In this document: piece after piece, positions 42,980 to 63,532 of the stretch
How the letters are laid out: the number at the start of each line of letters is the position of its first letter
How positions within the stretch are numbered: position 1 is the first letter of the stretch
Assembly: GCA_965248925.1 (NCBI GenBank)
Contig: CBDFLE010000005.1
Coordinates: 512,001-576,000 of the forward strand
Direction: 5' to 3'
DNA length: 64,000 bases
Source of the DNA: Candidatus Multivoradales bacterium
Lineage (GTDB): Bacteria > Acidobacteriota > Thermoanaerobaculia > Multivoradales > J023
Position numbers and translations under genes: made by a program
The notes under the pieces: model-generated
Database searches by the model: none
What the model saw: the letters and a program-made list of their open reading frames with translations, nothing else
Told to the model about the DNA's origin: nothing

Positions 42980-43303
42980 ATGATCGAGATTGATAAGTTC
43001 TTTGAGATCCAGCTGCGGGTGGCTACGGTGTTAGAGGCTGAAGCTATCCCCAAGTCCACCAAGCTGCTCCGGCTGAGCCTAGAGATCGGCGAAGAGGAGC
43101 CACGGACCGTGGTAGCGGGTATTGCCAAGAACTTTGAACCCGAGTCCTTGATCGGCCGGCAAGTGGTGATCGTCGCCAACTTGCAGCCTGCCAAGCTGAT
43201 GGGAGTGGAGTCCAACGGCATGATCTTGGCAGCCACCGACGACTCCGGACCGGCCTTGCTGATTCCTGACCGCCCAGTGCCCAATGGCACCCGAGTCGGC
43301 TGA
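42980..43303 (+). CDS. Stand-alone tRNA-binding OB domain (MetRS C-terminal/Trbp111/CsaA-like)
   Basis: RTVVAGIA, VIVANLQPAKLMGVESNGMILAA. Confidence 0.88.
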   Translation: MIEIDKFFEIQLRVATVLEAEAIPKSTKLLRLSLEIGEEEPRTVVAGIAKNFEPESLIGRQVVIVANLQPAKLMGVESNGMILAATDDSGPALLIPDRPVPNGTRVG

Positions 43304-43313
43304 GCCTTCGCTG

Positions 43314-44129
43314 ATGTTACAGCCCGGCCCCATCGATTCTCACTGCCACGTCAATCTTCTCAACGATCCCGACGCTGCTCTTGAGCGGGCTCGCGAGTGC
43401 GGAATCAGCGGCTTCTTGGTGCCGGCGATCAAACTGGCCGATGCCGAGCCGCTGCTCGAACTCTGCTCACGCCACGACGATGTCTGGTGCGCCCTTGGAG
43501 TGCACCCGCACGAGGCCTCGACCTGGCAAGATGGCGACGACCGGCGCTTGGCTGACTTGCTTAGCGAACCCAAGGCGGTAGCGGTGGGGGAGTGCGGTCT
43601 CGATTTTCATTACGACCTGTCGCCCCGCGAAGAGCAGTTCCGTGCCGTCCGCGAGCAATGGCAATTGGCCATCGACCTGGATCTGCCGGTGGTGGTCCAC
43701 AATCGCGATTCCAACCAGGAGATGCTAGAGCTAGTGGCGCGACCAGAGTTCGCTGACCTGCGAGCAGATTTTCACTCCTTCGCTGGCGGTTTGGAGATGG
43801 CGCGTGGCCTTCTAGGTCGCGGCTTCTATCTGGGCATGACCGGGATGATTACCTTCCCCAAGGCCGATAACGTGCGCGAGGTGCTACCAGAAACTCCCCA
43901 CGACCGCCTTTTGGTCGAGACCGACACCCCCTACTTGGCACCGGTACCGCACCGTGGCAAACGCAACCAGCCAGCTTTTGTGGTTGCGGTGCTCGAAAGA
44001 CTGGCTGAGGAACTTGGTTTGAGCATTGCTCAGGCGGTGCGCCAGACCAATGAGAACTTCTTTCGCTTGTTCTCGCGAACTCGTCTTGGTGCAGCTGAGC
44101 CCATCGGAGGCTTTCCCACCGCGGTCTGA
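43314..44129 (+). CDS. tatD: TatD-family hydrolase
   Basis: IDSHCH, GVHPH, GECGLDF, HNRDS, ETDTPYLAP. Confidence 0.92.
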   Translation: MLQPGPIDSHCHVNLLNDPDAALERARECGISGFLVPAIKLADAEPLLELCSRHDDVWCALGVHPHEASTWQDGDDRRLADLLSEPKAVAVGECGLDFHYDLSPREEQFRAVREQWQLAIDLDLPVVVHNRDSNQEMLELVARPEFADLRADFHSFAGGLEMARGLLGRGFYLGMTGMITFPKADNVREVLPETPHDRLLVETDTPYLAPVPHRGKRNQPAFVVAVLERLAEELGLSIAQAVRQTNENFFRLFSRTRLGAAEPIGGFPTAV

Positions 44130-44204
44130 GAACGGGTTGGAGTAGATCTTGCTCTCACTCTAGCCTGCTCCTAGGCGGTGGTCACCCTGCCTCGGTCGCT
44201 TGGC

Positions 44205-44237
44205 GTCATCCTACGTTCATCTGCCATCAAATACTCT
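44205..44237 (+). promoter_or_regulatory. Pho-box-like promoter, copy A
   Basis: GTCAT-cctacg-TTCAT-ctgccatcaaa-TACTCT upstream of the REC-TM gene. Confidence 0.6.
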
Positions 44238-44274
44238 TGCCACCGTTCAAGGAGTACGCAGTTACCGAGGAACC

Positions 44275-45117
44275 ATGGTGAACGTCGAGCAACCAAAAAA
44301 CGACTCCCCAACGACGCCAAGTCTGCTGTTGGTGGATGACAACCACGACCTGCGACGAGCCACGGCTGAGCTGCTGCGAGCGAAGGGCTGGGAGGTGGTC
44401 GAAGCTGGATCGGCGGAACAAGCTCTGGAGTTAGCCGCTCACCGATCGTTCGCAGTCCTGGTCAGTGATGTCTCGATGCCCGGCATGGACGGTCCCGAGC
44501 TGGTGACTCGTCTACGCCGGCAGCTTCCCGGCCTACGTTGTCTGCTGGTCTCTTCCGCGGAGGGGCGGGCGGATGTAGAGCGCTTGGTGACCCGGCGGGA
44601 GGTGCTATTTCTCGCCAAGCCTTTCTCGGAAGCTCAGCTTTCCCGTTCCCTCCGGCAGCTTCCCTCTGCATCTCCTAAGATTCAATCACGGCGCTATCTG
44701 GCGTTGGCCGCGGTCGCTTTAGTAGCTGCATCCTTGGTCGGCTGGTGGCTACAAATGAGGCCTCCGCCGCTACCCCCGGCAGCTGCTTCCGGGGTGGTTC
44801 GCGGCTCGACTCTTGAGCCAATTCGGCCTCTTGGGGAGCAGATTCAGCCGCCTGACGATCTCGCTTGGCGTGAAGTTGATCTAGCTGCAAGTTACCGTGT
44901 GAGCTTGCGCGAGGTTGACGAGAATCTACTGTGGCAGACGAAAGTAGAGGGTTCGCCTACCGACGTGCCGGCCAAGTTGCGACAAGCGTTGCAACCCGGG
45001 GTTGTTTATTTCTGGCAAGTGGAAGCTCTGGACACGACCGGCGCTCGACTGGCATGGTCCAGTCCGGTGCAATTCCGGATGATCGCGGAGCTGGCCGCAA
45101 TACAAGGTGTTGAGTAG
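44275..45117 (+). CDS. Receiver domain-TM-extracytoplasmic beta-sandwich protein
   Basis: LLVDD, SDVSMPGMDG, FLAKPF; TM YLALAAVALVAASLVGWWL; then VVRGS..LAWREV..YRVSL..YFWQVEAL. Confidence 0.82.
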   Translation: MVNVEQPKNDSPTTPSLLLVDDNHDLRRATAELLRAKGWEVVEAGSAEQALELAAHRSFAVLVSDVSMPGMDGPELVTRLRRQLPGLRCLLVSSAEGRADVERLVTRREVLFLAKPFSEAQLSRSLRQLPSASPKIQSRRYLALAAVALVAASLVGWWLQMRPPPLPPAAASGVVRGSTLEPIRPLGEQIQPPDDLAWREVDLAASYRVSLREVDENLLWQTKVEGSPTDVPAKLRQALQPGVVYFWQVEALDTTGARLAWSSPVQFRMIAELAAIQGVE

Positions 45118-45144
45118 CGAGGCTTAGGAATTGGAGGACTTGAG

Positions 45145-46182
45145 ATGCTTGAGAGCTACCCTGCAAAGTTGATTCGACGGACTCTGGTGGTCGAGACGAT
45201 GGTCTTCTGCTGGGCCTCGGTGGCCTTCTGCCGGCCAGATCTCACCCTGCGGGTGAATGATACTTCGGTAGACGCCGGTGGTCGGGTGGCGATCGTCTTG
45301 CGCACCTATGCTTCACGGCCAATCGGCCAAGGCCAGCTGTGTTTTCGTAATGCCTTCGTGGCCAACGGTCCCGACCAGCTGCTGGGCAAAGGAATAGGTT
45401 CTCCTTTCGTGGCGCTCGACAGTTTCGTCATCTTCAGTGAGATGGGAGACGTTGTGGCCGAGGCTTCTTTTGACCCGATTACCCAGTTGGTACTGGTTGA
45501 TTTCTCCTCGGTTTCCGCAACTGTCAACAGTGCCGATGGGCCTCTTGGAGTACTCTACTTTCAAGTCGATGGAGGGTTGGTTCCGGACACCGTTTTCAAT
45601 GTGGAGATAGACCCCGACGCCTCTTTCCTGGTTGACGAAGCTGGATTGCCGGTGATCATCAGGCCGCGGTCCGGGGAAATGGATATCCGACCGCTCGGCG
45701 CACCTTACTTGTTGGAAACCGGCGCTGCCGAGGTAGTTCCGGGAGCAGTCGCTTTGCTGAGCGTCGAGACCTCAGAGCTGTTCCCCATTGCAGGCGGCCA
45801 GATCGGCCTCCGCTATCCGGCAGAGATCGCTGGTGGGCCGCCGACGGTCAGTGTCGACCCACGCTACGGCCTGGTCATGGTCGAGACTTCGAGGGCTGAA
45901 CCTGGCCTGCTAGTGATCAATCTTAACTCTCCCGACAGTTCCTACAACGAGGTGCCTGGAGAGATCTTGACCATCGCGCTGCCGATCCGTGGCGATGCTC
46001 CTTTAGGCAATGTCTATCCTCTGACCCTCGATCCGGACTCCACCTTCCTCAGCGGACCGGCAGGAGCACCGATCAGCTTGCAGCTGATGGGCTCAACGGT
46101 CAAAGTGACCGGCCCGCCGGCGCTCTTCACGGATGGTTTTGAAGGTGGCGACTTTGCTGCCTGGTCGGCAGTGCAGCCCTGA
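45145..46182 (+). CDS. Secreted protein with two cohesin-like repeats and C-terminal DGFE motif
   Basis: Internal repeat (..RPIGQGQ..DPDASFL / ..FPIAGGQ..DPDSTFL); ends LFTDGFEGGDFAAWSAVQP; GGAGG Shine-Dalgarno. Confidence 0.7.
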   Translation: MLESYPAKLIRRTLVVETMVFCWASVAFCRPDLTLRVNDTSVDAGGRVAIVLRTYASRPIGQGQLCFRNAFVANGPDQLLGKGIGSPFVALDSFVIFSEMGDVVAEASFDPITQLVLVDFSSVSATVNSADGPLGVLYFQVDGGLVPDTVFNVEIDPDASFLVDEAGLPVIIRPRSGEMDIRPLGAPYLLETGAAEVVPGAVALLSVETSELFPIAGGQIGLRYPAEIAGGPPTVSVDPRYGLVMVETSRAEPGLLVINLNSPDSSYNEVPGEILTIALPIRGDAPLGNVYPLTLDPDSTFLSGPAGAPISLQLMGSTVKVTGPPALFTDGFEGGDFAAWSAVQP

Positions 46183-46205
46183 CGCGTAGTTCTTGGCGGC
46201 TATGC

Positions 46206-48779
46206 TCAGCCCTTCCGCGGGCGCAGCCACCAGGCGGTGATCGGCAGCAATAGGGCGGCAGCGACCAGCAGCCAGGTCCAGCCCCGCTGGCGCTCGATCA
46301 AGGGGCCAACATCTCCCACCAGCACGTAGGCCGCCCACACTGAGGGGCGGTCCCAATCTGGATCCGAATGCAGGCGTAGCTTGGCTTGGCGAAGCGCATC
46401 CGCGGGTGCCAGGCCGCGGCCGAGGAAGTGATAGAGCTGCTCCATGAACACCGCTGAGCTTTGGTCGTCGACATCCCACAGGGTGGCGATCACGGCTGCC
46501 GATCCTGCTGCCAGGAAGGCGCCGGCGAGGGAGGAGAGGGCTCGGCCTTGGTCGTCGGCAAGGGCTGTTCGGCAGGCCGATAACACGGTCAAGCCAACCG
46601 CCATCTCGAGTCTGGCAATCTCGCGTGGGTAGAGTAGGCCGTCGTTGGCCGAGTCGCTGCCGAGGACGATCGCAGCGCTGCCGCCGGGGCGTTCGTCAAG
46701 CACCGCGTGGCTGGCCAAGTGGAGGATACGTGCCGGCGCAGCGACGGCAGCGCGGAAATACTCCTCGGTCGCGTGCGCGCCAACAGCTAACTCGCTTTCC
46801 CCTGGCCACTGCTCGGCGATGCGTAGCAGCTCGCCCGTTGCTGCTGGTAATGGGGAGAGATGAAAACGCTCGATCAGCAACTCGCGTGGCGTGCCTGGTT
46901 GCTCTGGCAAGTACTCCAATCGGGGATCGGCCAAACCTACCAGGCGGTCGCTGGTTGGGGGTTGCCGGCGACCTAGGGCGGAGGCGCTTGGCAGGTAGCT
47001 GACCACCAGGTGATCGATCAATCGCTGGTCGCCGTGGTCGCCGGTAGGCAGCAGCTCAAAAGGCAGGTAGTGGAGCACTCCGTCGGGGGCAATCTGCAGC
47101 GTGCCCGAAGCCTGGTCAAGGGTAGCCAACGGCGTCAGCAGGATTCTCGATAGCTCGGCTAGAGCCTCCTGCGGCAGCTGCTTGCCAGCTGCCAGGGCGC
47201 GATGAACTTCGCTCACCAGCGTATTGACGGTGGCCGGCGGGCCGAGATCATGGAGTTCGATACGGCCTTCACCGATCTGCCACAGCAGCAGGCTAGAGTC
47301 GGTCAAATAGAGTTCCAAAATGCGGTTGGCAGCAGCCAGCTCGAGCAGCTCGGCGGCGCTTCGCGGAGTTTGGGGCAGATTCCCCGGCGGCTTATCGGCG
47401 GCCTTAGTGAGGTGAGCCAGGGTCTCGATCAGTTCCCTTGCCTTCGCCTGCTGGACAATCTCCAGCGCATGCTCGGCATGGCCAAGGCCGGGTTGCTGGT
47501 GGTCGAGCCGGGCCAGCACCTCAATGGCGGCGCTGTAGACCACTCGCTGGTCGGCAAGAAAAGTCCACCGCAGGTCGTCTTGATCCAGTCTGTCGGCGCC
47601 CAACTTGCTTTGCTGCTGCTCGACCCCGGCGACTGCGCGCAGTAAATGCGGCAATGCCAATCCCAACTTACCGCGGGCCGCCTGCACTAGGCCAAGGCCG
47701 TTTTCGGCTTGCCAGTGGGCGATGGTTGAGGAGTCTTTGGCGGCGGCGAACTGCTGCTGAAACATCTGCTCCGCCTGGTCAAACTGGCCGCGGTCGAGGT
47801 GCAGGCGGCCGAGTTGCCCGAGGCTGCGCAGTTCTTCGGCTTTGGCGCCGCCCTGCCGCGCCGCCTTCAGAGCGCTGCTCAAGGCAAGCTCAGCGTCGTC
47901 CAACCGCGCCAGGTTGAGGTGATAGGCCAGCCCCAGGTTGAGCAGCGCATTGGCTCGACCGCTACCGTCGCCGAGTTGCTGAAAAAGCTCGGCAGCGGCA
48001 GCGAAGGCTGCCACTGCTCGTTGCGGATCGCCGAGATTGCGATAGACCACGCCCAGGTTGACCCGCAGATTGGCGCGGCGGTGGGGCGGCACCCTTGGGT
48101 CGTCGGCGACCGCTCGGCGATACTGCTCGAGCGCCGGTCGGTAGGCACCGGCGAGCTCCAACGCCACCCCCTGGTTGACCCTCGAGATCCAGGCTTGCTC
48201 GGCGGCCCAAGGCTGTTCGGCATGCTGGTCGGCCAGTTGCTCAGCCAGCCGATGGTGGACCAGAGCATCGGTGTAGCGGCCGGCTTCGGTCTCCAATGCC
48301 CCGAGATTGGCCAGGTTGACCACCTCTTGGCCGAGATTGCCTAGCTGGCGGTTGATATTTAATGCCTCGTTGAAGGCTTGACGGCTAGCGGCGAAGTTAC
48401 CCAAGTAACGCTCGCTGAGGCCGAGGTTGTTCAGCACTCGGGCCAGACGGCGGTGATCGCCGAGCTGGCGCCGCAGAGCGAGGGCCTGGCGGCATTCAGC
48501 GACGGCCCGGTGATGGTCGCCGAGGTCGTTGAATACCACGCAGGCGTTGTTCAAGGCCCGAGCGCGCAACTCGGGGTCGGCGCCGGGCTGGCTTGCGGCC
48601 GCGTGGAAGGCCTCGGCAGCCTGCCGCCAGAGTCCTTCGCCATAGAGTCGCCGCGCTGCCTCCAAGTCCTGGGCGGTGAGGGTGGCGGCCAGCAGCCAGC
48701 CGCCGAAAACGAGCAGCCACCAAAGTCGTTGGCGAGGATGGTGTTGGGTCTTCTTACCGCAGGATTTAAGCCGGTACAT
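46206..48779 (-). CDS. Exported TPR-CHAT (caspase HetF-like) protease with C-terminal membrane anchor
   Basis: Signal peptide, TPRs, IAPDGVLHYLPFE, ILHLASHA (His), VLSACRT (Cys), LWDVDD, WAAYVLVG, C-terminal TM followed by RPRKG. Confidence 0.9.
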   Translation of the reverse strand: MYRLKSCGKKTQHHPRQRLWWLLVFGGWLLAATLTAQDLEAARRLYGEGLWRQAAEAFHAAASQPGADPELRARALNNACVVFNDLGDHHRAVAECRQALALRRQLGDHRRLARVLNNLGLSERYLGNFAASRQAFNEALNINRQLGNLGQEVVNLANLGALETEAGRYTDALVHHRLAEQLADQHAEQPWAAEQAWISRVNQGVALELAGAYRPALEQYRRAVADDPRVPPHRRANLRVNLGVVYRNLGDPQRAVAAFAAAAELFQQLGDGSGRANALLNLGLAYHLNLARLDDAELALSSALKAARQGGAKAEELRSLGQLGRLHLDRGQFDQAEQMFQQQFAAAKDSSTIAHWQAENGLGLVQAARGKLGLALPHLLRAVAGVEQQQSKLGADRLDQDDLRWTFLADQRVVYSAAIEVLARLDHQQPGLGHAEHALEIVQQAKARELIETLAHLTKAADKPPGNLPQTPRSAAELLELAAANRILELYLTDSSLLLWQIGEGRIELHDLGPPATVNTLVSEVHRALAAGKQLPQEALAELSRILLTPLATLDQASGTLQIAPDGVLHYLPFELLPTGDHGDQRLIDHLVVSYLPSASALGRRQPPTSDRLVGLADPRLEYLPEQPGTPRELLIERFHLSPLPAATGELLRIAEQWPGESELAVGAHATEEYFRAAVAAPARILHLASHAVLDERPGGSAAIVLGSDSANDGLLYPREIARLEMAVGLTVLSACRTALADDQGRALSSLAGAFLAAGSAAVIATLWDVDDQSSAVFMEQLYHFLGRGLAPADALRQAKLRLHSDPDWDRPSVWAAYVLVGDVGPLIERQRGWTWLLVAAALLLPITAWWLRPRKG

Positions 48780-48839
48780 CTGCAGATCGTACCCTACTCG
48801 GGGCGCCGCCCGGTGGGCGGCGGAGGCGACCATCGGGGG

Positions 48840-50156
48840 CTAACTGCTGGTCTTGAGCGGGAACCGGTCTGGGCGGCCGAAGAGGAACCCCTGGGCGGTT
48901 GGACATCCTGCCGCTTGGATGGTCCGCAGCTCTCTCGGGTTCTCGATACCCTCTGCCACCACCTCCAAGCCCAATCGGTTGCCGAGCGCTACCACCGCTT
49001 CCACAATCGCCAGGCTGGTGTCGTCGGTCACAGCTTGGCTGGTGAATTCTCGCGGGATCTTCACCTTGCGGGCGCGCAGCAGCTTGAGGTACTGCAACGA
49101 GCTGAAGCCGGTGCCGAAATCGTCCAAGGCCAGCTGGATGCCCCGGCGATGCAACCTGGCCAGACCGCTGCCGTGGTCGTCCAGGGAGTCTACGGCCACC
49201 GTTTCGGTGAGCTCGAGCTCCAGCAGGTGCTCCGGCAATCGAGCAGCCTCCAATGCCTTGTCGATGCAGGCAGGAAAAGACGGGTCGGCCAGCTGTAAGG
49301 CGGCGACATTAACCGCGATCAAGGTGTCGTGGGCAATCTGTGAACTCCACCGTTGCCGCCAACGGCAGGCTTCCTTGAGCACCCAGCTGCCGAGATCGCA
49401 GACCAAGCCGGTGGACTCGGCGAGAGGAATGAACTCATTAGGACCCAGCAGTCCGCGGCGCGGGTGAAGCCACCTGATCAGGGCTTCGTACGCCTTGACC
49501 TTCCCGCTCCTGAGATTGATCTGGGGTTGGAAATCCAAGTAGAGCTGACCCTGCTGTAGAGCCCTCTGCAGGGCCTCGAACTCGCTCAGCTCAGCCGCCT
49601 GTCGGGCAGCGGCGCCATCTAGGCAAGAGATTCGTTTACCACTCTGCCGAGCCTGCTCCAGGGCGGTGCGTGCCCGGCCGAGCAGCTCTTCAGCGGCTAC
49701 CCCATGGGTGTGCAAGCTCAAGCCAACCCGGCATGCCTGGCGAGGGTGCTCGGCTCGCTTGCTGATCGAGGTGGCGGCGTCCACTAACTTCTGCGCCAGG
49801 AACAAAGCGCTGAGGGGATCAGCGACCGCCCGCTGCAAGATCGCGAAGCGACCCCGACCGAGATAGGTCCAGGCATCGCAAGAGCGTACCAATTCGGCGA
49901 GCTGCACGGCCACGGCGCGAATCCTCGGTGTCTGGGTTGAGAGGTCCGGTGCCGGGTCGGGGGTAGACTCGACCGATAGCACCTGCACGGCAATCGTTTC
50001 CCCGGTTCGATCCGCTTGAGCGACCGCCTGCCGCAGGCGGTCGGCGAAGCTCGATCCCGCGGCCGCGGGCGCTTGCTCAGCGCCGCGGGGCAGCCGCGCA
50101 TCGAAGGTGGCATGGGCCGAGGAATCGACGGTAGTCAAGGTTTCCAACTCCAACAT
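48840..50156 (-). CDS. Degenerate-GGDEF plus EAL domain protein (c-di-GMP phosphodiesterase-like)
   Basis: GGDEF site reads LGRGRF; EALIRW, ELTE, DDFGTGFSSL, AEGIE, QGFLFGRP. Confidence 0.88.
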   Translation of the reverse strand: MLELETLTTVDSSAHATFDARLPRGAEQAPAAAGSSFADRLRQAVAQADRTGETIAVQVLSVESTPDPAPDLSTQTPRIRAVAVQLAELVRSCDAWTYLGRGRFAILQRAVADPLSALFLAQKLVDAATSISKRAEHPRQACRVGLSLHTHGVAAEELLGRARTALEQARQSGKRISCLDGAAARQAAELSEFEALQRALQQGQLYLDFQPQINLRSGKVKAYEALIRWLHPRRGLLGPNEFIPLAESTGLVCDLGSWVLKEACRWRQRWSSQIAHDTLIAVNVAALQLADPSFPACIDKALEAARLPEHLLELELTETVAVDSLDDHGSGLARLHRRGIQLALDDFGTGFSSLQYLKLLRARKVKIPREFTSQAVTDDTSLAIVEAVVALGNRLGLEVVAEGIENPRELRTIQAAGCPTAQGFLFGRPDRFPLKTSS

Positions 50157-50182
50157 GAAATCCTCCCGTGGATGTCTGGCGC

Positions 50183-50215
50183 TTTCTATCGCGTCGGAGA
50201 TGAATGGAGCGTGAA
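50183..50215 (-). promoter_or_regulatory. Pho-box-like promoter, copy B
   Basis: Minus strand TTCAC-gctcca-TTCAT-ctccgacgcga-TAGAAA upstream of the EAL gene. Confidence 0.55.
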
Positions 50216-50244
50216 GAAGTCTGAGAAGTAGCTAGAGATAATTG

Positions 50245-50276
50245 AAAATGGCCGCCGGAGTTCAATCCGGCGGCCA
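50245..50276 (-). terminator. Intrinsic terminator of the Calx-beta gene
   Basis: 11-bp stem TGGCCGCCGGA/TCCGGCGGCCA, 6-nt loop, followed by TTTT on the minus strand. Confidence 0.75.
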
Positions 50277-50335
50277 ATCCTCGGGTCAGTTGCTGCCTGA
50301 GGGGCAGTGCTATCGGCCCTTGCCGGCAGCCATTC

Positions 50336-52687
50336 TCAAGGACAGGCGCGGAAAGTCGAAGTGTCGAAGATCGGTGCCGCGGCTCCGCTGCCGTTGTCGC
50401 GGTAGATCTTGCGCTGTCCGGTCTCGGTATCTTCGATGGTGACCACGATCGACAAAGTCGTGGTGGCGGCGTAGGACAGCCAGTAGGCGCCGAAGGTCTC
50501 ACAGGCGTCAACCGCCTTGACCAGGAACTCAAAGTTGCTGCGATCGTCGTAGTAGAACAATCCTGACTTGTCCGACAGCACCACTACTTTGGCGTCGCGA
50601 GTAGTGCCGTTCGGGATCGTGTAACGGATGCTCACCCTGAACCGGCCGCTGAGCAGGCAGAGAGTGTTGATACCGGCAGGGCAGTTGGTGTTGTCATCGT
50701 CGGCGATCGTCAGCGTCGCGTTGCCGCGTAGCGGGTCGATGGTGGTGCCACCGGTGGCGCCGCTCAAGCTGAGCTCAATGGTCTCATTGCCCTCGGGGTC
50801 GAGGTCGTCGAGGATTGGCACCAAGAAGGTCCTGTCCGCGCCGTCGCCAGCGGCCCAGCTCAGAGTGCCGCTGACCGCGGTGTAGTCGCTACCGTCGAAG
50901 GCGCTACCGTCGAAGCTCGAATAACTGACCGAAGCGGCGCCGTCCTCGCCCGAAGAGCGCTCGACGGTGATCACCGCCATGCCGGACTGCTCCAAGGCCT
51001 GGTACGCGGCCGAGCTGAATTTGAAGATGCCCGGTGTGCCGCCACCACCACCGCCACCACCGCCACCACCGCCACCACCGCCACCACCGCCACCACCGCC
51101 GCCGGTACCGCCGTCACTGGCCAAGATCACCAGGTCAGCTTCGCCCCGCAAACCGTCGATCACCGCTCCGCCGGTGACGTTGGCCAAGGTGAGATGGACG
51201 GTCTCGGCGCCCTCGGACGCACTATCATCGAGAATCGGTACCGAGAAAGTCTTGTCAGCGCCATCGCCGGCGGCCCAAGTCAGCACGCCGGAGCTTCCCA
51301 GATAGTCGCTGCCGTCGCTGGCACTGCCATCGCTGGTGGAGTACTCAACGCTGACCACGCCGTCCTCGCCCGAGGAGCGCTCGACGGTGATCACCGCCGT
51401 GCCAGCTTCCTCGAGCACTTCGAAACTGATCTCGTCGAACTTGATCACCCCTGGTGTTCCAGTCCCACCGCCACCGCCACCGCCACCGCCACCGGTGCCG
51501 CCATCGTTGGCCAGAATTCGAATCACCGCGGTATCACGTCCGGCCGTGAGGCCAGCACCACCGGTGGGGTTGGACAAGGTCAGTTGCAGGATCTCGTCGC
51601 CTTCCGCCAGCTCGTCTTCGAGGATTGGCACAACAAAAGTCATGTCGGTGCCGTCACCATTGGCCCAGCTCAAGGTGCCGCCGACGCCGGTGTAATCGCT
51701 GCCATCCTCGGCGCTGAGGTCGCTGGTGGTGTAGTCGACGGTGACCGCGCCGGAATCTCCCTGGGAACGCTCGACACGAATGATAGCCACGCCGGCCGAC
51801 TCGAGGACCTCGAAGCTAGCTTCGTCGAATTTCAGGTTGCCGGCAGCGCCGCCACCACCACCACCACCACCACCACCGCCGCCGCCGCCGGTGCCACCAT
51901 CACTGGCCAGGATGACCAAGGTGGAGGTGCCGCGCAGGCCGTCGATGGTAGCGCCGCCAGTAGCGTTGGAGAGCACCATCTCGATGGTCTCGTCGCCTTC
52001 GGCTTCGGCATCGTCGAGGATCGGAACGTTGAAAGTCTTGGCCAGGCCGTCGAGATTGGCCCACATCAAAGTGCCACTGACGGATTGGAAGTCGCTGCCA
52101 TCGATGGCAGAGCCGCCACTGATCGTGTAGTCCACCGAAACCACGCCGGACTCGCCTTGCGAGCGCTCGACTCGGATCACCGCCAGGCCGGCTTCTTCGA
52201 GCACCTCGAAGGTGACCTCGTCGAATTTCAGGTTGCCAGCAGCGCCACCGCCGCCACCGCCGGTGCCGCCATCGCTGGCCAGGATGACCACCACCGAAGT
52301 GCCGCGGCCGGCGCGAATGATTGAGCCGCCGGTGGGGTTGGAGAGTTCCAGATCGATGGTCTCGGCGCCCTCGGCCTCGGCATCGTCGAGAATCGGAATC
52401 TCGACCACCCGGTTGCTTCCGTCTTGATCCCCCCATGACAGCGTGCCCGCGGCGGCCGTGTAGTCGGTGCCTTCGCTGGCGCTGCCGCCAGTCGTCGACC
52501 AGTTGATAGTGACCGCTCCATCTTCACCGCGCGAGCGCTCGATCACCACCAACGCGACGCCGGCCTCTTCGAGTACTTCGGTACTGTCCTCATCAAAGGC
52601 GATCTCGCCGTTGCCGGCGGCTAACAAGGGGGATGCCAAGAGGGCCAGGATCCACCCCAAGACTAGTTTCATGTTGAGTGCTTTCAT
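50336..52687 (-). CDS. Secreted surface protein with five Calx-beta domains, poly-Gly linkers and a Cys-containing C-terminal domain
   Basis: Signal peptide; 5 x (F....EVLE.AG..ERS.G..G.V.V.Y...DGSDY...GTL.W..GD..K.F.VPILDD...EG.ET); C-terminal LCLLSGRFRV..EFLVKAVDAC..YW. Confidence 0.9.
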   Translation of the reverse strand: MKALNMKLVLGWILALLASPLLAAGNGEIAFDEDSTEVLEEAGVALVVIERSRGEDGAVTINWSTTGGSASEGTDYTAAAGTLSWGDQDGSNRVVEIPILDDAEAEGAETIDLELSNPTGGSIIRAGRGTSVVVILASDGGTGGGGGGAAGNLKFDEVTFEVLEEAGLAVIRVERSQGESGVVSVDYTISGGSAIDGSDFQSVSGTLMWANLDGLAKTFNVPILDDAEAEGDETIEMVLSNATGGATIDGLRGTSTLVILASDGGTGGGGGGGGGGGGGGAAGNLKFDEASFEVLESAGVAIIRVERSQGDSGAVTVDYTTSDLSAEDGSDYTGVGGTLSWANGDGTDMTFVVPILEDELAEGDEILQLTLSNPTGGAGLTAGRDTAVIRILANDGGTGGGGGGGGGGTGTPGVIKFDEISFEVLEEAGTAVITVERSSGEDGVVSVEYSTSDGSASDGSDYLGSSGVLTWAAGDGADKTFSVPILDDSASEGAETVHLTLANVTGGAVIDGLRGEADLVILASDGGTGGGGGGGGGGGGGGGGGGGGGGTPGIFKFSSAAYQALEQSGMAVITVERSSGEDGAASVSYSSFDGSAFDGSDYTAVSGTLSWAAGDGADRTFLVPILDDLDPEGNETIELSLSGATGGTTIDPLRGNATLTIADDDNTNCPAGINTLCLLSGRFRVSIRYTIPNGTTRDAKVVVLSDKSGLFYYDDRSNFEFLVKAVDACETFGAYWLSYAATTTLSIVVTIEDTETGQRKIYRDNGSGAAAPIFDTSTFRACP
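51038..51103. repeat. In-frame Gly22 microsatellite ((CCACCGCCA)n)
   Basis: 66 nt of acc/gcc triplets. Shorter tracts at 51464-51493 (Gly10), 51848-51889 (Gly14) and 52244-52261 (Gly6). Confidence 0.95.
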
Positions 52688-52826
52688 CTTCGTATCCTCC
52701 ACACTTTGTTGTTCGGAAAAGGCTCGTTCACTTGAACTTTGCCGCTCAACCCGGTTGCGGGCGAAGTGCTGAATGTGGGTGCTGAATGAGCATCGCACTC
52801 GGCAGCAAGCGGCTTGGCATGCTCCA

Positions 52827-52859
52827 GTTATAGCCAGGCGTGTATGAACGGAACATGAC
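52827..52859 (-). promoter_or_regulatory. Pho-box-like promoter, copy C
   Basis: Minus strand GTCAT-gttccg-TTCAT-acacgcctggc-TATAAC upstream of the Calx-beta gene. Confidence 0.62.
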
Positions 52860-52926
52860 CGAGATAAAGTGCCGAGCGGTAGGGTCCAGCCTGGCTCCGT
52901 GATCCCGATCATTGTTAGGGAGAGCA

Positions 52927-52959
52927 TTCATTTAGCGTTCATGCGCCAATCTGTATACC
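52927..52959 (+). promoter_or_regulatory. Pho-box-like promoter, copy D
   Basis: TTCAT-ttagcg-TTCAT-gcgccaatctg-TATACC, 7 nt before the ppk1 ATG. Confidence 0.62.
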
Positions 52960-52966
52960 TCTAAGC

Positions 52967-55183
52967 ATGAACAGCTCGCTCGAAGATTCAACCGCGTTCA
53001 CCAGCCGATCAGAACCTAGCTCGCTAGGGCCGCTAGCCCCACGATTGATTGCCGTGGACTCGGTGAACCGCGTCGGTTCCGACCTGAGTTCTCCTCAGCT
53101 CTACCTCAATCGGGAGCTGACCTGGCTGGCTTTTAACCGCCGCGTGCTGCACGAGGCGCGGGACCCGCAAACACCGCTGCTTGAGAGGGTTAAATTTCTT
53201 AGCATTGTCAGCTCGAACTTGGACGAGTTCTTCATGAAGAGGATCGGCGGCTTGAAGCAGCAAGCCGCCGCGCAGCTGGAGGTGCTGAGCGTCGATGGCC
53301 GGACCCCTCGGCAACAGATCGCCGAGAGCCTGGAAGAAGCCCGCCAGATCCTTGAGGAGCAGCAGGTGGTCTTTGGGACCTTGCTCGGTGAGTTGCAGGC
53401 CAAGGGCATCCGCTTGCGGCGTTACCGAGATCTCGATTCGAAGCTGCGACGAGTAGCTCGTGGCCACTACAAACGACAGGTCCTGCCGCTGATCACGCCG
53501 CTGGGTTTCGATCCCGCTCACCCCTTCCCGGTGCTCTCTAACCGGTCACTGAATCTGCTGGTGGAGCTTCGGGAAAATGCTGACGAGCCTACCTTCCTGG
53601 CGCGGATCAAGGTGCCAGTGAGTGCCAGGACGCCACGTCTTGTCCAGATCGGCAAGCAGCAGCAGTTTGTGTTCCTCGAGGAAGTCATCGCCCACAACCT
53701 GGACTTACTGTTTGGCGACTGCCTGGTCGAGTCCTGCCACGCTTTCCGGGTGATCCGCAATGCATCGACCGAGCGCGACGAAGAGAACGCCGACGATCTG
53801 CTGGCGATGATAGAAGCGGAGCTTCGCGATCGTCGGTTTGCTCCCTTCGTCCGTCTCGAGGTAGCAAAGGAGATGGCCCCGGCCCATCGCCGGCTTCTGG
53901 CCGCTGAGTTGGGGCTCGACTTGGTGTTCGACGTCTTCGAAAATGAGGGCCCGCTGGCGCTGGCGCATTTGCTCGAGCTTGCCAACCTGGATCTTCCACA
54001 GCTTCACTTCTCGCCCCATCGGCCGAGGGTCAACGCCCAGCTGGCCGAGAAACACAACGTATTCGCCGCCATTCGCCGCCATGGCTCGATTCTGCTGCAG
54101 CACCCGCGTGAGTCCTTCGGTGCTTCGGTCGAGCGCTTCGTCGACGAGGCGAGCCGCGATCCAAAAGTGGTGGCGATCAAAGCGACCCTCTATCGCACCT
54201 CGGACGGCACCCGGATTGTCGACAGCCTGGTGCAAGCCGCGCTTGATGGTAAGCAGGTGGCGGTGGCGGTGGAGCTGAAAGCTCGATTCGACGAAGCGGC
54301 CAACGTCCGCTGGGCCCGCCGTCTGGAAGAAGCCGGGGTTCATGTCAGCTACGGCATCGTCGGTCTCAAGACCCACTGCAAGGCATTGCTGGTGGTGCGT
54401 GAGCAGACCGGAGGGCTGACGCGCTACGTTCACATCAGCACCGGCAACTATCATGCAGGCACCGCTCTCGCCTACAGTGATCTGGGGTTGCTGAGTTGCG
54501 ACGAGGAGCTCGGCTGGGACATCGCCGATCTGTTCAATGCGTTGACCACCGGGCGTAACTTGGACCGTCGCTACCGCAAGATCCTGACCGCGCCCAAGGT
54601 GATGAAAGCCCTGCTGCTGGCCAAAATCGAGCGCGAAACCAAGCTCCACAATCCAGCCTCCCCCGGCTTGATCCGCCTCAAGACCAATGCCCTGGAAGAC
54701 CCGGATGTGGTCGCGGCGCTCTACCGGGCCGGCAGAGCCGGGGTGCGGGTCGAGCTGTTTGTGCGCGACACCTGCAGGTTGCGCCCTGGTCTACCAGGAC
54801 TCTCCGAGAGCATTCGGGTATTTAGTATCGTCGGCCGGTTCCTAGAGCATTCGCGGGTCTACCACTTCAGCAATGGTGGGGAAGACGAGTACTTCATCGG
54901 CTCAGCGGATCTGATGCAGCGCAATCTCGAGCACCGAGTGGAGCTGCTGGTGCCAGTGGAGCAGCCGGACCAACGTCAGGTGCTGGAGAAGTTCCTTCGG
55001 GCCTCGCCCGGCAAGGACTGGCGGATTTGGCAGATGCAGTCCGATGGCAGCTACATCGAGCAGCCGGATTCGCCCACCGCGAAAGCACCCGCCGCGAGCT
55101 CGGTCCGCGTCGCGGTAGCAGAAAGCCAATGCGAGGTATTGAGTTGGAGAAAAAATGTTCTGGAGGTGGCGAATGCCTCTTGA
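52967..55183 (+). CDS. ppk1: Polyphosphate kinase 1
   Basis: NRELTWLAFNRRVL, SNLDEFFMKR, ELKARFDE, KTHCK, TGNY, IVGRFLEHSR, SADLMQRNL. Confidence 0.96.
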   Translation: MNSSLEDSTAFTSRSEPSSLGPLAPRLIAVDSVNRVGSDLSSPQLYLNRELTWLAFNRRVLHEARDPQTPLLERVKFLSIVSSNLDEFFMKRIGGLKQQAAAQLEVLSVDGRTPRQQIAESLEEARQILEEQQVVFGTLLGELQAKGIRLRRYRDLDSKLRRVARGHYKRQVLPLITPLGFDPAHPFPVLSNRSLNLLVELRENADEPTFLARIKVPVSARTPRLVQIGKQQQFVFLEEVIAHNLDLLFGDCLVESCHAFRVIRNASTERDEENADDLLAMIEAELRDRRFAPFVRLEVAKEMAPAHRRLLAAELGLDLVFDVFENEGPLALAHLLELANLDLPQLHFSPHRPRVNAQLAEKHNVFAAIRRHGSILLQHPRESFGASVERFVDEASRDPKVVAIKATLYRTSDGTRIVDSLVQAALDGKQVAVAVELKARFDEAANVRWARRLEEAGVHVSYGIVGLKTHCKALLVVREQTGGLTRYVHISTGNYHAGTALAYSDLGLLSCDEELGWDIADLFNALTTGRNLDRRYRKILTAPKVMKALLLAKIERETKLHNPASPGLIRLKTNALEDPDVVAALYRAGRAGVRVELFVRDTCRLRPGLPGLSESIRVFSIVGRFLEHSRVYHFSNGGEDEYFIGSADLMQRNLEHRVELLVPVEQPDQRQVLEKFLRASPGKDWRIWQMQSDGSYIEQPDSPTAKAPAASSVRVAVAESQCEVLSWRKNVLEVANAS

Positions 55184-55214
55184 AATGATCGACACAACGA
55201 AAGAGAGGCACTCG

Positions 55215-55976
55215 ATGACCGATCTGGCGGAAATCCTACCGACCACTGAAAGGCCGTTGCTGCCACCGACCCCCATCCGGGCCGGTGATGTGATGCCTAC
55301 AGTCGACGATGGCAAGGCCGAGAATGAGTCGGGTGATGAACTCTTGTTGATGATCGCGGAAGCTATTGACGTCAACCTGGGGAGCCGTTCGGCCAAAAAG
55401 AAGAAAAAGAGCAAGTCCAGTAAGAAGCAGGGCCTTGACGTGGGTACCAGCCGCGGCATCGAGTCAATGCTACGCAACTCCTACCGGGCGCAGCTGGCGA
55501 TGATTGCGCTGGCGGCTCGCAAGGCCAACATCATGATCTCGGTCAATGGTTTTCTCTTGTCGTTGCTGACCGTCGGCAGTGCCTATGTGCTGACCTCGGC
55601 ACCTTATCTGCTGATCCCCTCCGGGATCTTCCTGGTGACTTGTATCACGGCAATTCTATTCGCCGTATTGGCAGCCCGTCCGCAGCGGGTCGACAGTTCG
55701 AGAACCCGGCTGAAAGACTTCCGCAAGGAGCGGGCCGACCTGCTGGTCTTCGAGCAGTTCTCGAACCTATCCAAAGAAGACCACATGGCGGTCATGCTGG
55801 AGATGATGGGCGACAAGGAGCGGGTCTACCGCAGCATGGTGGCCCATCTACACTTCCTCGGTCAGTCCGCCAATCGCCGTTTCGAAACTCTGCGAATCTC
55901 CTACAATGCGTTCATCATCGGATTGATCGCCAGCTGTGTCGCCTTGGCGGCGGTAGTAGCGATCTTTTACCTTTAG
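55215..55976 (+). CDS. DUF5706 / Pycsar TM-effector-like membrane protein
   Basis: Lys run, then RGIESMLRNSYRAQLAMIALAARKANIMISVNG, two TMs, A.RP, cytoplasmic loop, LRISYNAFIIGL TM. Confidence 0.78.
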   Translation: MTDLAEILPTTERPLLPPTPIRAGDVMPTVDDGKAENESGDELLLMIAEAIDVNLGSRSAKKKKKSKSSKKQGLDVGTSRGIESMLRNSYRAQLAMIALAARKANIMISVNGFLLSLLTVGSAYVLTSAPYLLIPSGIFLVTCITAILFAVLAARPQRVDSSRTRLKDFRKERADLLVFEQFSNLSKEDHMAVMLEMMGDKERVYRSMVAHLHFLGQSANRRFETLRISYNAFIIGLIASCVALAAVVAIFYL

Positions 55977-55990
55977 GAAGAGTCGACTAG

Positions 55991-57007
55991 ATGAAGACAC
56001 TCTTGCGCGGCGCTTCGCGGCCGTGGCGGTGGGGGTGCGAGGCCCCTTTGGCGCTCTCGGCAATGCTCCTGCTGGCCGCTGGCGCCGCCACCGAGGCGGA
56101 ATTCAAGTTGATCGAAGGCATCTATGAGCCCTCTGGCGCCACCCAGCTCGAAGACGGGACGATCGTCGCCGTCGAAGACGAGCCCGCGCGGCCGTTCAGC
56201 TTGCTGAGCCCGGCCGGGTTGGTGACTCGGCTCAGTGCTCAACCGCTGCGATCCGGCTCGTTACTCTCGGCCGCTTTTCTCGAGCTGGCCGATCTGGAGG
56301 GGGTCGCGGCCGGAGAGTCAGGCTTCGCTTATGCCATCACTTCGCATTCGCGAAAGGACAACGGCAAGCGCTCCGCTGAGCGAGAACGGCTGGTGAGGTT
56401 CAGAGTCGAGGACTCGAGGATCACTGATCTAGAGGTGGTGACCGGTCTGCGCGATGCTCTGGTTCGGGCGTTTCCAGAGCTCGACAGCGCGGCAAGAGAG
56501 CGCCAGGTGAAACGAGACCATGGGCTGAACCTGGAAGGTCTGACCTTCGGTCTCCGGCGGCAGACGCTGTGGATCGGATTTCGCGGTCCGTTGGTCAAGG
56601 GTGACGCGATGCTGGTCTCGATCCTCAACCCGCGACGGGCCTTCGAAAGCGATGAGGGCTTTCGCTTTGGCGACCGGGTGTTGACCTTGGATCTCGGCGG
56701 AGGTGGCATCCGTGGCTTGGCCTACGTCCCCCGGCTCTCTGGCTTTCTGATCCTCAGCCAGCGCGAGAGTGGCAAAAAAGAGAGCCCCTTCAAGCTGTGG
56801 CTGTGGAACGGCGGCGGGGAACACTCGGTGCGGCGGGTTCGGATCGAGGGTGTGGCCGATCTGCGAAGGGCCGAGGCGGTGGTGCCGATAAGCCTCGAGG
56901 GCCAAGACAAGCTTCTGCTGCTCAGCGACGACGGCAGCTACCGCCAGCGCCGCCCTGCCAGGTACTTGCTGGTTGACTACGCGGCGCTGCGCATCGATCA
57001 GGAATAG
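55991..57007 (+). CDS. Secreted DUF3616-like beta-propeller protein
   Basis: Signal peptide; YEPSG, DLEGV, ITSHSR, GLNLEGL, IGFRGP, LDLGGGGIR. Confidence 0.75.
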   Translation: MKTLLRGASRPWRWGCEAPLALSAMLLLAAGAATEAEFKLIEGIYEPSGATQLEDGTIVAVEDEPARPFSLLSPAGLVTRLSAQPLRSGSLLSAAFLELADLEGVAAGESGFAYAITSHSRKDNGKRSAERERLVRFRVEDSRITDLEVVTGLRDALVRAFPELDSAARERQVKRDHGLNLEGLTFGLRRQTLWIGFRGPLVKGDAMLVSILNPRRAFESDEGFRFGDRVLTLDLGGGGIRGLAYVPRLSGFLILSQRESGKKESPFKLWLWNGGGEHSVRRVRIEGVADLRRAEAVVPISLEGQDKLLLLSDDGSYRQRRPARYLLVDYAALRIDQE

Positions 57008-57026
57008 CGGTGAAACGAGGAGAAGC

Positions 57027-58223
57027 ATGAAAACCACGATCTTGCTGAGGAGTTGGGTCCTTGTCACGGCGCTGGTGTCGCTTGTTGGACTGGCCCAGGC
57101 GAAAGAGAAGTCAGGCCAAGACGGGTCCAGGATCGAGATTGGCAAGAAGGGTTTACGTTTCGCCACCACCGGCGGCGATTTTAAGCTCAGGCTGGGGGGT
57201 CGCTTACAGATCGACGGCGCGTTGCATGACGAGGATCGCAGTACCTTAGAAGATGGCAGCGAAGTGCGCCGTGCACGGATCTACCTCAAGGGCTCTATGT
57301 TCGACCGCTGGTCATTCAAGGCGCAGGCCGATTTCAGCGACGGCGACGCCGACCTCAAGGATCTATATCTCCGCCATACCGGTCGTAAAGGGACTGAAAT
57401 CACCATCGGCAACTTCAAAGAGCCCTTCGCGATGGAAGAGCAGATCAGCTCCAAGCACATCACCTTCGTCGAGAGATCCCTGCCCATTGCCGCTTTCGCC
57501 CCCGGTCGCGCGGTGGGCTTGGGGATCCACCATGGCAACCAACATGGCGGAGCTTCGGTGGGGCTCTTCGGCGAGGCCATCTCAGGCCATAACAGCTTCG
57601 ACGACCAGGGATTTGGCATCGCCGCCCGCTTCACTCGATCGCCTTTTGTCGGCAAGAGCAAAGTCTTGCACCTGGGATTCGCGACCGCGTACCGCGAGCC
57701 CCGAAGGGGACAGAGGCTGCGCTTCGACGCGGCGCCGGAGTCTTCGGTGGCGGGCGAAGAGCTGGTTCGCACTCGGCGGCTCAACGACGTCCAGGCCACC
57801 GTGAGCTACGGCCTCGAAGCAGCTTGGCGGGCGGGTTCAGTGTCTCTCCAGGGCGAATACATCGGAGTTGAGGTCAACCGCAACGACGGCAAGTCCGATG
57901 TCAGCTTATCTGGCTGGTATACCTACCTCAGCTGGTTCCCCACCGCTGATCGCCGCCCCTACGATGCAGCAGAAGGTGTCTTCGGCCAAGTGAAACCCAA
58001 GCACAAAGGCGGTGCCTGGGAGCTGGCGGTGCGTTTCAGCACCCTCGACCTCGATGGCCCCGGCGCCGATGGCGGCCAGCAAGACAACATCACCCTGGCC
58101 ACCAGCTGGTACCCCAACACCAACCTCCGCTTGATGCTCAACTACGTCATGGTTGACTCTACCCGCCGCGGCCGCGATGACAACCCCAACATCCTGCTGG
58201 CCCGCGCCCAGGTGGTGTTCTAG
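57027..58223 (+). CDS. OprO/OprP-family phosphate-selective porin
   Basis: LGGRLQID, RRARIYLKG, GNFKEPF, FVERS, GAWELAVRFS, WYPNTNLRLMLNY, terminal F. Confidence 0.9.
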   Translation: MKTTILLRSWVLVTALVSLVGLAQAKEKSGQDGSRIEIGKKGLRFATTGGDFKLRLGGRLQIDGALHDEDRSTLEDGSEVRRARIYLKGSMFDRWSFKAQADFSDGDADLKDLYLRHTGRKGTEITIGNFKEPFAMEEQISSKHITFVERSLPIAAFAPGRAVGLGIHHGNQHGGASVGLFGEAISGHNSFDDQGFGIAARFTRSPFVGKSKVLHLGFATAYREPRRGQRLRFDAAPESSVAGEELVRTRRLNDVQATVSYGLEAAWRAGSVSLQGEYIGVEVNRNDGKSDVSLSGWYTYLSWFPTADRRPYDAAEGVFGQVKPKHKGGAWELAVRFSTLDLDGPGADGGQQDNITLATSWYPNTNLRLMLNYVMVDSTRRGRDDNPNILLARAQVVF

Positions 58224-58285
58224 GAACCGGTGTTGGAGTAGGTCTCCCGCCGCTCAAAGAGACCCTGACTTTGGGGCACTCTCAA

Positions 58286-58352
58286 CCCCCCCCCCCCCAA
58301 GAAAAAGCCCTAGGTGGGTGGCACACTTAGCCCTGGCACACTTAGCCCTGGC
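58286..58352. repeat. C13 homopolymer plus 15-bp tandem repeat (TGGCACACTTAGCCC x2)
   Basis: C run at 58286-58298; repeat units at 58319-58333 and 58334-58348 plus a partial TGGC; lies between convergent genes. Confidence 0.85.
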
Positions 58353-58355
58353 GAC

Positions 58356-59998: not shown

Positions 59999-60009
59999 CG
60001 CAAACTCCT

Positions 60010-61322: not shown

Positions 61323-61363
61323 ATCGGTTCTCCTCGGTTCTTGATTGCGTTAGCTCAGGGTGA

Positions 61364-63360: not shown

Positions 63361-63486
63361 GGCTAATACCTCGGGTTCTGTGGGTGCAGGTTGCCCTGGT
63401 GGATGTCGGTCTTGGTGTGAGTTCTTTACGTCGGTTCATCGAAAAATGGGCGGCGCCGCCCCGGAGAGCGGCCGGGGCACCGGTGA

Positions 63487-63523
63487 CGCCGGCAGGAGGG
63501 GCGCCGCGATCCTCCTGCCGGCG
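63487..63523 (-). terminator. 13-bp perfect hairpin right after the multicopper oxidase stop
   Basis: CGCCGGCAGGAGG / CCTCCTGCCGGCG; a second GCCCCGG/CCGGGGC stem follows, then TTTTT. Terminator or mRNA stabiliser. Confidence 0.55.
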
Positions 63524-63532
63524 ATTCTCAGG

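Follow-up and report, generated by a model that had tools for sequence, protein, structure and literature searches.

The 64,000-nucleotide stretch of Candidatus Multivoradales bacterium analysed here (the window; G000:C5:512001-576000, where G000 is the 7.98-Mb source genome) carries four copies of one promoter element, oriented toward genes for a membrane-tethered receiver protein, a cyclic di-GMP (c-di-GMP) phosphodiesterase, a secreted Calx-beta protein and an accessory polyphosphate kinase 1 (ppk1). Sequence comparisons indicate, with a probability of about 0.8, that these sites are the operators of one OmpR-family response regulator, which is encoded at C5:584883-585557 together with an adjacent hybrid histidine kinase. 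The core of the regulon is an exported module comprising a receiver-transmembrane-immunoglobulin-like protein (REC-TM-Ig), a cohesin-fold protein, a CHAT protease and the Calx-beta protein. Around this core, the ppk1 operon and the EAL gene form an accessory set, each with an operator of its own. The first-pass annotation of the window had proposed a phosphate-starvation (Pho-like) regulon. Its cis-element and its shared regulon stand, and the Pho identity falls.

Four promoter sites in the window

The four putative operator/promoter sites, as read from the sequence, are as follows.

44205-44237, + strand: operator/promoter 1, GTCAT-CCTACG-TTCAT-N11-TACTCT, 37 nt 5' of the REC-TM-Ig ATG at 44275
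50183-50215, - strand: operator/promoter 2, TTCAC-GCTCCA-TTCAT-N11-TAGAAA, 26 nt 5' of the EAL ATG at 50156
52827-52859, - strand: operator/promoter 3, GTCAT-GTTCCG-TTCAT-N11-TATAAC, 139 nt 5' of the Calx-beta signal-peptide ATG at 52687
52927-52959, + strand: operator/promoter 4, TTCAT-TTAGCG-TTCAT-N11-TATACC, 7 nt 5' of the ppk1 ATG at 52967, a near-leaderless geometry

On re-reading, the coordinates, letters and orientations toward the named genes all agree with the first-pass annotation, as does its statement that three of the four sites have GTTCAT as the second half-site. Each site pairs two direct repeats at an 11-bp period; from the end of the second it is 11 nt to a -10-like TAnnnn hexamer. 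The annotation had noted the lack of TTGACA, and a consensus promoter scan likewise detected none of the TTGACA type at these four positions. All four G000 sites show the layout of a class II activator site, with repeats at the -35 position, no canonical -35 and 11 nt to TAnnnn.

The exact pattern KTCAY-N6-TTCAT-N11-TAnnnn matches four times in the window and not once in each of 100 shuffles; across the whole genome it likewise has four matches, all of them the window sites. The concern raised in the first-pass annotation, that the motif might be frequent at random, is thereby allayed. Relaxing the pattern to the pair KTCAY-N6-KTCAY without a -10 abolishes any genome-wide enrichment (79 observed versus 87 simulated under a Markov-3 model), so that the motif signal is local and specific. 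Furthermore, a weight matrix trained on 26 sites from other genera, with the G000 sites excluded, was run over both G000 strands (15,960,746 positions) and placed the four sites at ranks 1-4: the Calx-beta site at 38.2 bits, the ppk1 site at 32.8, the REC-TM-Ig site at 27.0 and the EAL site at 24.9. The fifth-ranked match reaches 16.9 bits and is intragenic. Outside the motif columns the flanks of the four sites share no similarity with one another, and the sites are therefore not copies of a repeat element.

Genome-wide data also bear on the hexamer. TAnnnT stands exactly 6 nt before called G000 start codons in 187 cases, compared with about 35-40 at other offsets, and this roughly five-fold excess argues that the hexamer serves as a -10 in G000. 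Leaderless mRNAs seem to be common in this genome; one gene of the leaderless type lies at C6:4669551, upstream of the pst region.

Conservation of motif and module in relatives

G000 is the sole member of its genus among the genomes compared, and conservation was followed in family-wide scans of 24 genomes and in an order-level sample of 151. With the correct spacing, the family genomes contain 46 matches versus 7 for a reversed control; with the spacing one base off (N7 between the repeats), the counts are 27 and 14. In the order sample there are 86 pattern matches versus 5 for the reversed control. About 12 motif matches in relatives were set aside as probable chance, being intragenic or without the leading K.

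REC-TM-Ig, cohesin, CHAT and Calx-beta genes form a conserved module in other genera of the family (30-56% protein identity), at a locus that holds no EAL or ppk1 gene in these relatives. The first-pass annotation had suggested looking at orthologous promoters, and the motif is indeed kept at the REC-TM-Ig and Calx-beta genes of related genera. Specifically, it precedes the orthologous REC-TM-Ig operon in nine family relatives (G002, G005, G006, G007, G009, G010, G013, G015 and G021, with N10 spacing in G006) and REC-TM-Ig orthologues in eight genomes of other families, and it precedes Calx-beta orthologues of 48-56% identity in eight family relatives (G002, G004, G006, G009, G011, G013, G015 and G021). 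In G005 the motif also lies upstream of the CHAT gene. EAL orthologues of 40% identity with their own site are found in G089 and G064. Across the 26 relatives' sites the half-site consensus is GTTCAT-N5-GTTCAT, and one genus shows the half-site variant CTTCAT. Orthologous promoters and the relatives-only matrix together bear out the earlier proposal that one regulon joins the REC-TM-Ig/cohesin pair, the EAL-CHAT unit, the Calx-beta gene and the ppk1 operon.

One promoter in the order extends the pattern. The S8 subtilase promoter of G089 (L178:14632-14680) has three phased GTTCAT repeats 11 bp apart before a -10-like TAGTCT.

Candidate regulator and kinase

The relatives' loci point to a candidate reader of the motif. 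In five of five loci the module is flanked by a protein of about 224 aa with Response_reg and Trans_reg_C domains and by a HisKA-HATPase_c-Response_reg kinase of about 620-640 aa (Pfam), the kinase open reading frame (ORF) at one of these loci being shorter as called (465 aa) and without the receiver domain. The usual gene order is response regulator, histidine kinase, site, REC-TM-Ig and cohesin. The best G000 match of the relatives' regulators is the 224-aa protein at C5:584883-585557 (58-69% identity), which is followed at C5:585554-587332 by a hybrid histidine kinase 40-45% identical to the relatives' kinases. The first-pass annotation was right that no DNA-binding response regulator is encoded in the window: on the window's numbering the pair occupies 72883-75332, and the cognate candidate begins 8.9 kb past the window's end. 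The kinases have two transmembrane helices around a periplasmic region of about 150 aa, for which protein-atlas matches at the N-terminus offer leads only, toward the helical-bundle sensors CHASE3, PilJ and DAHL. The regulator itself is about equally near the RppA, CopR, PhoB and PmrA models and under the cut-off of each; on the PmrA/BasR equivalog NF007928 it scores 187.1 bits, short of the cut-off of 330. Its closest solved structures are DrrD, PrrA, Mycobacterium tuberculosis PhoP (E 1.7e-41) and BasR (E 5.5e-38).

Distribution across the order agrees with this assignment. A regulator orthologue, called at E<=1e-78, is present in 52 of the 151 genomes and the motif, called as an exact pattern match, in 46; 39 genomes have both, 7 the motif alone, 13 the regulator alone and 92 neither. 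The motif is thus present in 39/52 genomes with the regulator as against 7/99 without it. These counts were tallied by hand and, since related genomes are not independent, are descriptive. In 17 genomes a site and the regulator orthologue lie within 7 kb of each other on one contig.

The available data are compatible with a model in which the kinase, through its periplasmic sensor, would phosphorylate the regulator, which would then bind as a head-to-tail dimer to the two 11-bp-phased repeats (GTTCAT-N5-GTTCAT). The repeats take the place of the -35, with 11 nt separating the second from a TAnnnT-type -10, and the dimer, once bound, would recruit RNA polymerase in the manner of PhoB at pho boxes. 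The units activated in G000 would be the REC-TM-Ig and cohesin-dyad pair, the EAL and TPR-CHAT pair, the Calx-beta gene and the ppk1-PycTM-DUF3616-OprO/P operon. What the sequences show are sites that are unique in G000 and conserved in relatives, where they are linked to the regulator and co-occur with it; from this we infer binding, activation and the positions of transcription starts.

Several observations weigh against this assignment. The G000 regulator is not adjacent to any of the sites, the nearest (that of ppk1) being 19.9 kb away, and there is no site upstream of its gene, including the 115-bp gap between two divergent regulator genes, so that autoregulation is not indicated. The second of these genes, at C5:584091-584768, encodes a 57%-identical paralogue that could share the regulator's specificity. 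Thirteen of the 52 regulator-bearing genomes lack the exact motif and 7 of the 99 regulator-less genomes possess it, counts that depend on an orthology threshold and an exact-match pattern that are both arbitrary and on genomes that are related. The final base of the -10-like hexamer is T in just one of the four G000 sites. Activation rather than repression, finally, is deduced from site position alone.

Alternative readings

The strongest competitor, itself unlikely, is that another OmpR-type protein binds the sites, either the divergent paralogue at C5:584091-584768 or both paralogues together. Besides adjoining the regulator and resembling it, the paralogue has counterparts elsewhere: G089 carries a 55%-identical second copy about 5 kb from its cognate pair, and in G004 two regulator/kinase pairs adjoin the Calx-beta site. 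In G133, moreover, a Trans_reg_C-TPR protein sits beside two sites. The comparison of identities nevertheless favours the regulator over the paralogue, which is the second-best G000 match of the relatives' regulators at 51-53% identity, since in loci with the order response regulator, histidine kinase and site the adjacent regulator is always the closer orthologue (58-71% versus 51-53%).

A Pho box, by which the four units would belong to a PhoB/PhoR phosphate-starvation regulon, is considerably less probable. OprO/P-type porins are typical Pho genes, the ppk1-OprO/P operon bears the operator in three genomes, and the site geometry is that of pho promoters. According to PMC4415409, ppk is a typical Pho gene and PHO-box cores read CTGTCAT and GTTCACC, which GTTCAT resembles. 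Against this, G000 has one PBP_like_2 (pstS) locus at C6:4671551 and one PhoU-like gene at C6:54187, and the relatives-only matrix finds no match of at least 12 bits near either of them, near candidate PhoBR genes or near the housekeeping ppk1 at C6:3392824; nor was the motif seen by eye upstream of pstS or the PhoU-like gene. In the first-pass annotation, absence of the site from pst/pho promoters was to point to another OmpR-type regulator, and absence is what was found. The regulator scores 191.6 bits on the PhoB model TIGR02154, sixth in a genome whose best match reaches 220.3 and in which none passes the cut-off of 296.2. That best match, C6:3542390, adjoins the second-best PhoR-model match, C6:3540914, the two forming a candidate PhoB/PhoR pair at C6:3.54 Mb. 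On the PhoR model TIGR02966 (cut-off 334.2) the cognate kinase, which is of hybrid type and has its sensor in the periplasm, reaches 74.8 bits and does not figure among the 10 matches at E<=1e-40. In addition, the regulator is patchy, occurring in 52/151 order genomes, and none of about 60 downstream genes examined in relatives is a phosphatase, pst or phn gene.

It is still less credible that the motif represents the -35 and -10 of an alternative sigma factor, for example of the extracytoplasmic function (ECF) type. The promoters do lack a TTGACA-type -35, and the motif marks only a few genes, which would suit an ECF regulon. What is conserved, however, is a direct repeat in tandem, recurring every 11 bp and present in three phased copies in one G089 promoter; the repeats lie 11 and 22 nt from the -10, neither at 16-18 nt, and the -10 is of the ordinary TAnnnT type in use genome-wide. 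In the annotated loci no sigma or anti-sigma gene stands beside the module, the place being taken by the regulator/kinase pair. Chance similarity or dispersed repeat copies merit hardly any credence: the pattern was defined after the sites had been seen, but no shuffle in 100 matches it, a matrix built without the G000 sites recovers exactly those four, their flanks are unrelated and the motif is conserved across families.

Target genes in the window

The genes predicted to be controlled by the OmpR-family regulator, and one intervening hairpin, are listed in order of position.

44275-45117, + strand: receiver, one transmembrane helix (residues 141-161) and periplasmic Ig-like domain, 280 aa (Pfam Response_reg 2.2e-21, Ig_Rha78A_N 3.3e-06)
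45145-46182, + strand: exported protein with predicted tandem cohesin fold, 345 aa, starting 27 nt past the receiver gene
46206-48833, - strand: TPR-CHAT (caspase-like) protease with an N-terminal hydrophobic export/anchor segment (Pfam CHAT 6.1e-55, plus TPR)
48840-50156, - strand: degenerate-GGDEF/EAL c-di-GMP phosphodiesterase (Pfam EAL 2.1e-68, GGDEF 2e-05; EAL and DDFGTG motifs present)
50249-50276, - strand: terminator-like hairpin past the Calx-beta stop and ahead of the EAL operator, with 11 pairs, 9 of them G-C, and a T-run behind them
50336-52687, - strand: secreted protein with signal peptide, five Calx-beta domains and Gly-rich linkers (Pfam Calx-beta 3.2e-92, 5 stretches)
52967-55183, + strand: second, accessory polyphosphate kinase 1 (four PPK Pfam domains)
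55155-55976, + strand: PycTM-family membrane protein with a Lys-rich tract (Pfam PycTM 1.9e-21)
55991-57007, + strand: DUF3616-like exported protein (Pfam DUF3616 1.3e-05)
56973-58223, + strand: phosphate-selective porin O/P (Pfam Porin_O_P 5.3e-63)

The REC-TM-Ig protein has no DNA-binding domain in Pfam. The phospho-acceptor residues of its receiver are conserved: neither the acidic pair nor D65, S94 or K115 varies among nine orthologues. The 345-aa protein encoded behind it has no Pfam or NCBIfam match, and its label in the first-pass annotation, cohesin, gains support from structure: an AlphaFold model with a predicted local distance difference test (pLDDT) score of 84.9 has the cohesin dyad 3L8Q as its best Foldseek match (E 7e-14) and reaches target-normalised TM-scores of 0.75-0.85 against single cohesins. 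A protein-atlas lead to cohesin (0.89) was thus later supported by the fold search. Complex prediction of the cohesin dyad with the periplasmic part of REC-TM-Ig gave a score of 0.00 in a run made without controls. The protein also ends (46132-46182) in a tag of the form F-x-D-G-F-E-x-G-D-x(2-5)-W, which is kept in 10/10 aligned orthologues and stands at the end of 54 of 6184 crudely called G000 proteins.

On the opposite strand, the terminator-like hairpin separates the Calx-beta and EAL units, which indicates that the EAL gene has its own promoter. TPR-CHAT is the second gene of the EAL unit, starting 6 nt past the EAL stop, and its orthologues are linked to the module in relatives. The Calx-beta leader (52688-52826) is about 139 nt long in G000 and about 60-120 nt in relatives; an Rfam scan of 43000-59000 at E<=1, this leader included, returned no family. 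In the polyphosphate operon, the PycTM protein, which belongs to a Pycsar-effector-type family of defence effectors and carries a Lys/Ser run, sits between ppk1 and DUF3616.

The accessory ppk1 operon

The ppk1 of the window (the island type) is 47% identical to the G000 housekeeping copy. Family relatives have the housekeeping type alone in 22 of 23 cases (45-50% identical to the island copy), the remaining, incomplete genome being without a match. The island type itself occurs in 3 of the 151 order genomes, namely G000, G062 and G089, which belong to three different families. In G089 the operon is complete, with ppk1 70%, PycTM 73%, DUF3616 57% and the porin, again last, 51% identical; it is headed by TTCAC-N6-TTCAT-N11-TATAAG, 6 nt and the ATG, and is accompanied downstream by the 40%-identical EAL gene with its own site and upstream by an S8 protease gene. 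In G062, ppk1 (75%), PycTM (80%) and DUF3616 (64%) follow GTCAT-N6-TTAAT-N11-TATAAA, one mismatch from the pattern, with 7 nt to the ATG. The regulator and the module are likewise present in both. That this operon recurs in G089 and G062 with its operator in the same geometry indicates that the operator belongs to the operon's own promoter and that the regulon includes the operon as an accessory. The gap of 6-7 nt between hexamer and ATG fits a leaderless ppk1 mRNA. The 80 best ppk1 relatives (53-64% identity; from many phyla, mostly proteobacterial) include none with PycTM or DUF3616 alongside and none with the motif; a porin match lies beside ppk1 in one of the 80.

Targets elsewhere in the order

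Further targets give an impression of what the system may serve. Downstream of the motif lie ArnT-like GT-C transferases in five genomes (best NCBIfam match ArnT, at 110-225 bits and under the cut-off) and LtaS/OpgB-type membrane enzymes of the sulfatase family in four, with scores under the equivalog cut-offs; these two groups come entirely from families or genera other than that of G000, whose four units include no lipid A enzyme. Other intergenic sites precede BNR/sortilin-type proteins (three genomes), FG-GAP proteins (five) and a Kelch propeller (one), and the motif is likewise found before a GT87 transferase (one genome), Omp85/POTRA proteins (three genomes), S8 and M36 peptidases, a CAP protein, a TolC-like protein and several family-less proteins. 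By analogy, this content resembles an envelope/surface regulon, which among known systems would be most like PmrA/BasR. The system is accordingly best described as a dedicated, patchily distributed envelope/surface regulon, nearer to PmrA/BasR than to Pho in content.

Comparison with known systems

At pho promoters PhoB takes up the -35 region itself, leaving about 10-11 nt to the -10. PMC4415409 describes PhoB and PhoP as binding direct repeats head-to-tail and contacting sigma-70, the core motif being CTGTCAT for E. coli and GTTCACC for S. coelicolor. The G000 system shares with PhoB (E. coli pstS and others) and PhoP of Streptomyces coelicolor the 11-bp-period repeats, a similar core and a ppk among the targets; its sites, too, replace the -35, and by analogy a head-to-tail dimer in contact with sigma-70 is predicted. 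It differs in being absent from pst/phoU, in a regulator that is no PhoB equivalog, in a hybrid kinase that is not PhoR, in its patchy distribution (52/151 genomes) and in core targets that are exported surface proteins.

PmrA, or BasR, with its kinase PmrB (BasS) of Enterobacteria and Pseudomonas, has arnT and eptA as targets and binds a CTTAAG-type PmrA box. Common to both systems are an OmpR-family regulator and a periplasm-sensing kinase; the ArnT-like and LtaS/OpgB-like genes behind the operator in other families of the order may be a further parallel. The half-site and the hybrid kinase set the present system apart, as do the scores on all family models, which are under cut-off, and the lack of a lipid A enzyme in G000. 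M. tuberculosis PhoP, among the closest solved structures, binds 7-bp motifs that are directly repeated at a spacing of 4 bp (PMC4832192). The same 7+4 repeat architecture is seen here, in a different group of organisms and with a different regulon and kinase.

The target module invites a further comparison. In LapD-LapG-LapA, a periplasmic cysteine protease exerts inside-out control of a Ca-binding adhesin. The present module would be alike in kind, with a Ca-binding exoprotein, an exported cysteine protease and a c-di-GMP enzyme, and REC-TM-Ig would parallel LapD as a membrane protein with a cytoplasmic signalling and a periplasmic domain. None of its proteins has homology to Lap components, and the putative input is receiver phosphorylation rather than c-di-GMP binding.

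Significance

In a full-text literature search (supplements excluded), neither the operator, nor a regulon based on GTTCAT direct repeats, nor a module combining CHAT, Calx-beta and receiver proteins was found described. The proposed mechanism follows the canonical scheme; its target proteins are uncharacterised as a set. The findings define, by computation alone, a regulon that combines a single operator and a single candidate regulator with exactly four promoters in a genome of 8 Mb and that is conserved across an order of bacteria that have received little study. As such, they provide a shared regulatory context for the uncharacterised REC-TM-Ig, cohesin-dyad, exported TPR-CHAT, PycTM-like and DUF3616 proteins. 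They also reveal that an accessory operon for a polyphosphate kinase and a phosphate porin is accompanied, from lineage to lineage, by a near-leaderless promoter predicted to depend on the regulator. The regulon reading predicts four peaks in DNA affinity purification sequencing (DAP-seq) and transcription starts 6-8 nt past the hexamers. A caution follows for annotation: a GTTCA/TGTCA direct repeat before ppk need not be a Pho box.

The functional purpose can be sketched only speculatively. In one scenario, which as a whole is doubtful, the two-component system would sense cations or mineral surfaces and deploy outside the cell a self-contained apparatus of cohesin dyad, TPR-CHAT and Calx-beta protein whose activity is gated from the cytoplasm by phosphorylation of REC-TM-Ig, while a mobile ppk1 operon found in three lineages and the EAL phosphodiesterase would have been plugged into the operator. 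If true, this would constitute phosphoryl-driven inside-out signalling, similar to LapD-LapG-LapA and unrelated to it, and would couple polyphosphate build-up (metal/Ca buffering) and c-di-GMP turnover to surface remodelling.

Further observations

The interval between the ppk1 operon and the regulator pair (window 58356-64000 and G000:C5:576001-584768) contains a truncated Peripla_BP_6 gene, a SCO1/SenC gene, a gene for a 1476-aa protein with a multicopper-oxidase domain and a second OmpR-type regulator, for which the CopR/SilR subfamily gives the best NCBIfam match; a neighbouring copper system may lie there. Peripla_BP_6 and SCO1/SenC homologues are also found within about 8 kb of the G089 regulator pair, beyond its second regulator copy.

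The Trans_reg_C-TPR protein of G133 (L177:12018-14492) is 824 aa long, with an N-terminal Trans_reg_C winged helix, TPR repeats and no receiver. The two sites beside it precede Omp85-like and sulfatase-family genes, and the protein may be an alternative reader of the operator in its family.

Outside the window, at G000:C6:3166519-3166562, the 11-bp unit TTCATTCCGGC occurs four times in a perfect tandem array. The array was considered as a regulon site and judged unrelated: TTCAT recurs four times in phase, with no -10, between ORFs on the opposite strand. These two small ORFs are 107 and 143 aa long, and the first has, by eye, the look of a ribbon-helix-helix antitoxin. The length of the array is not a multiple of 3, and it could form a phase-variable junction.

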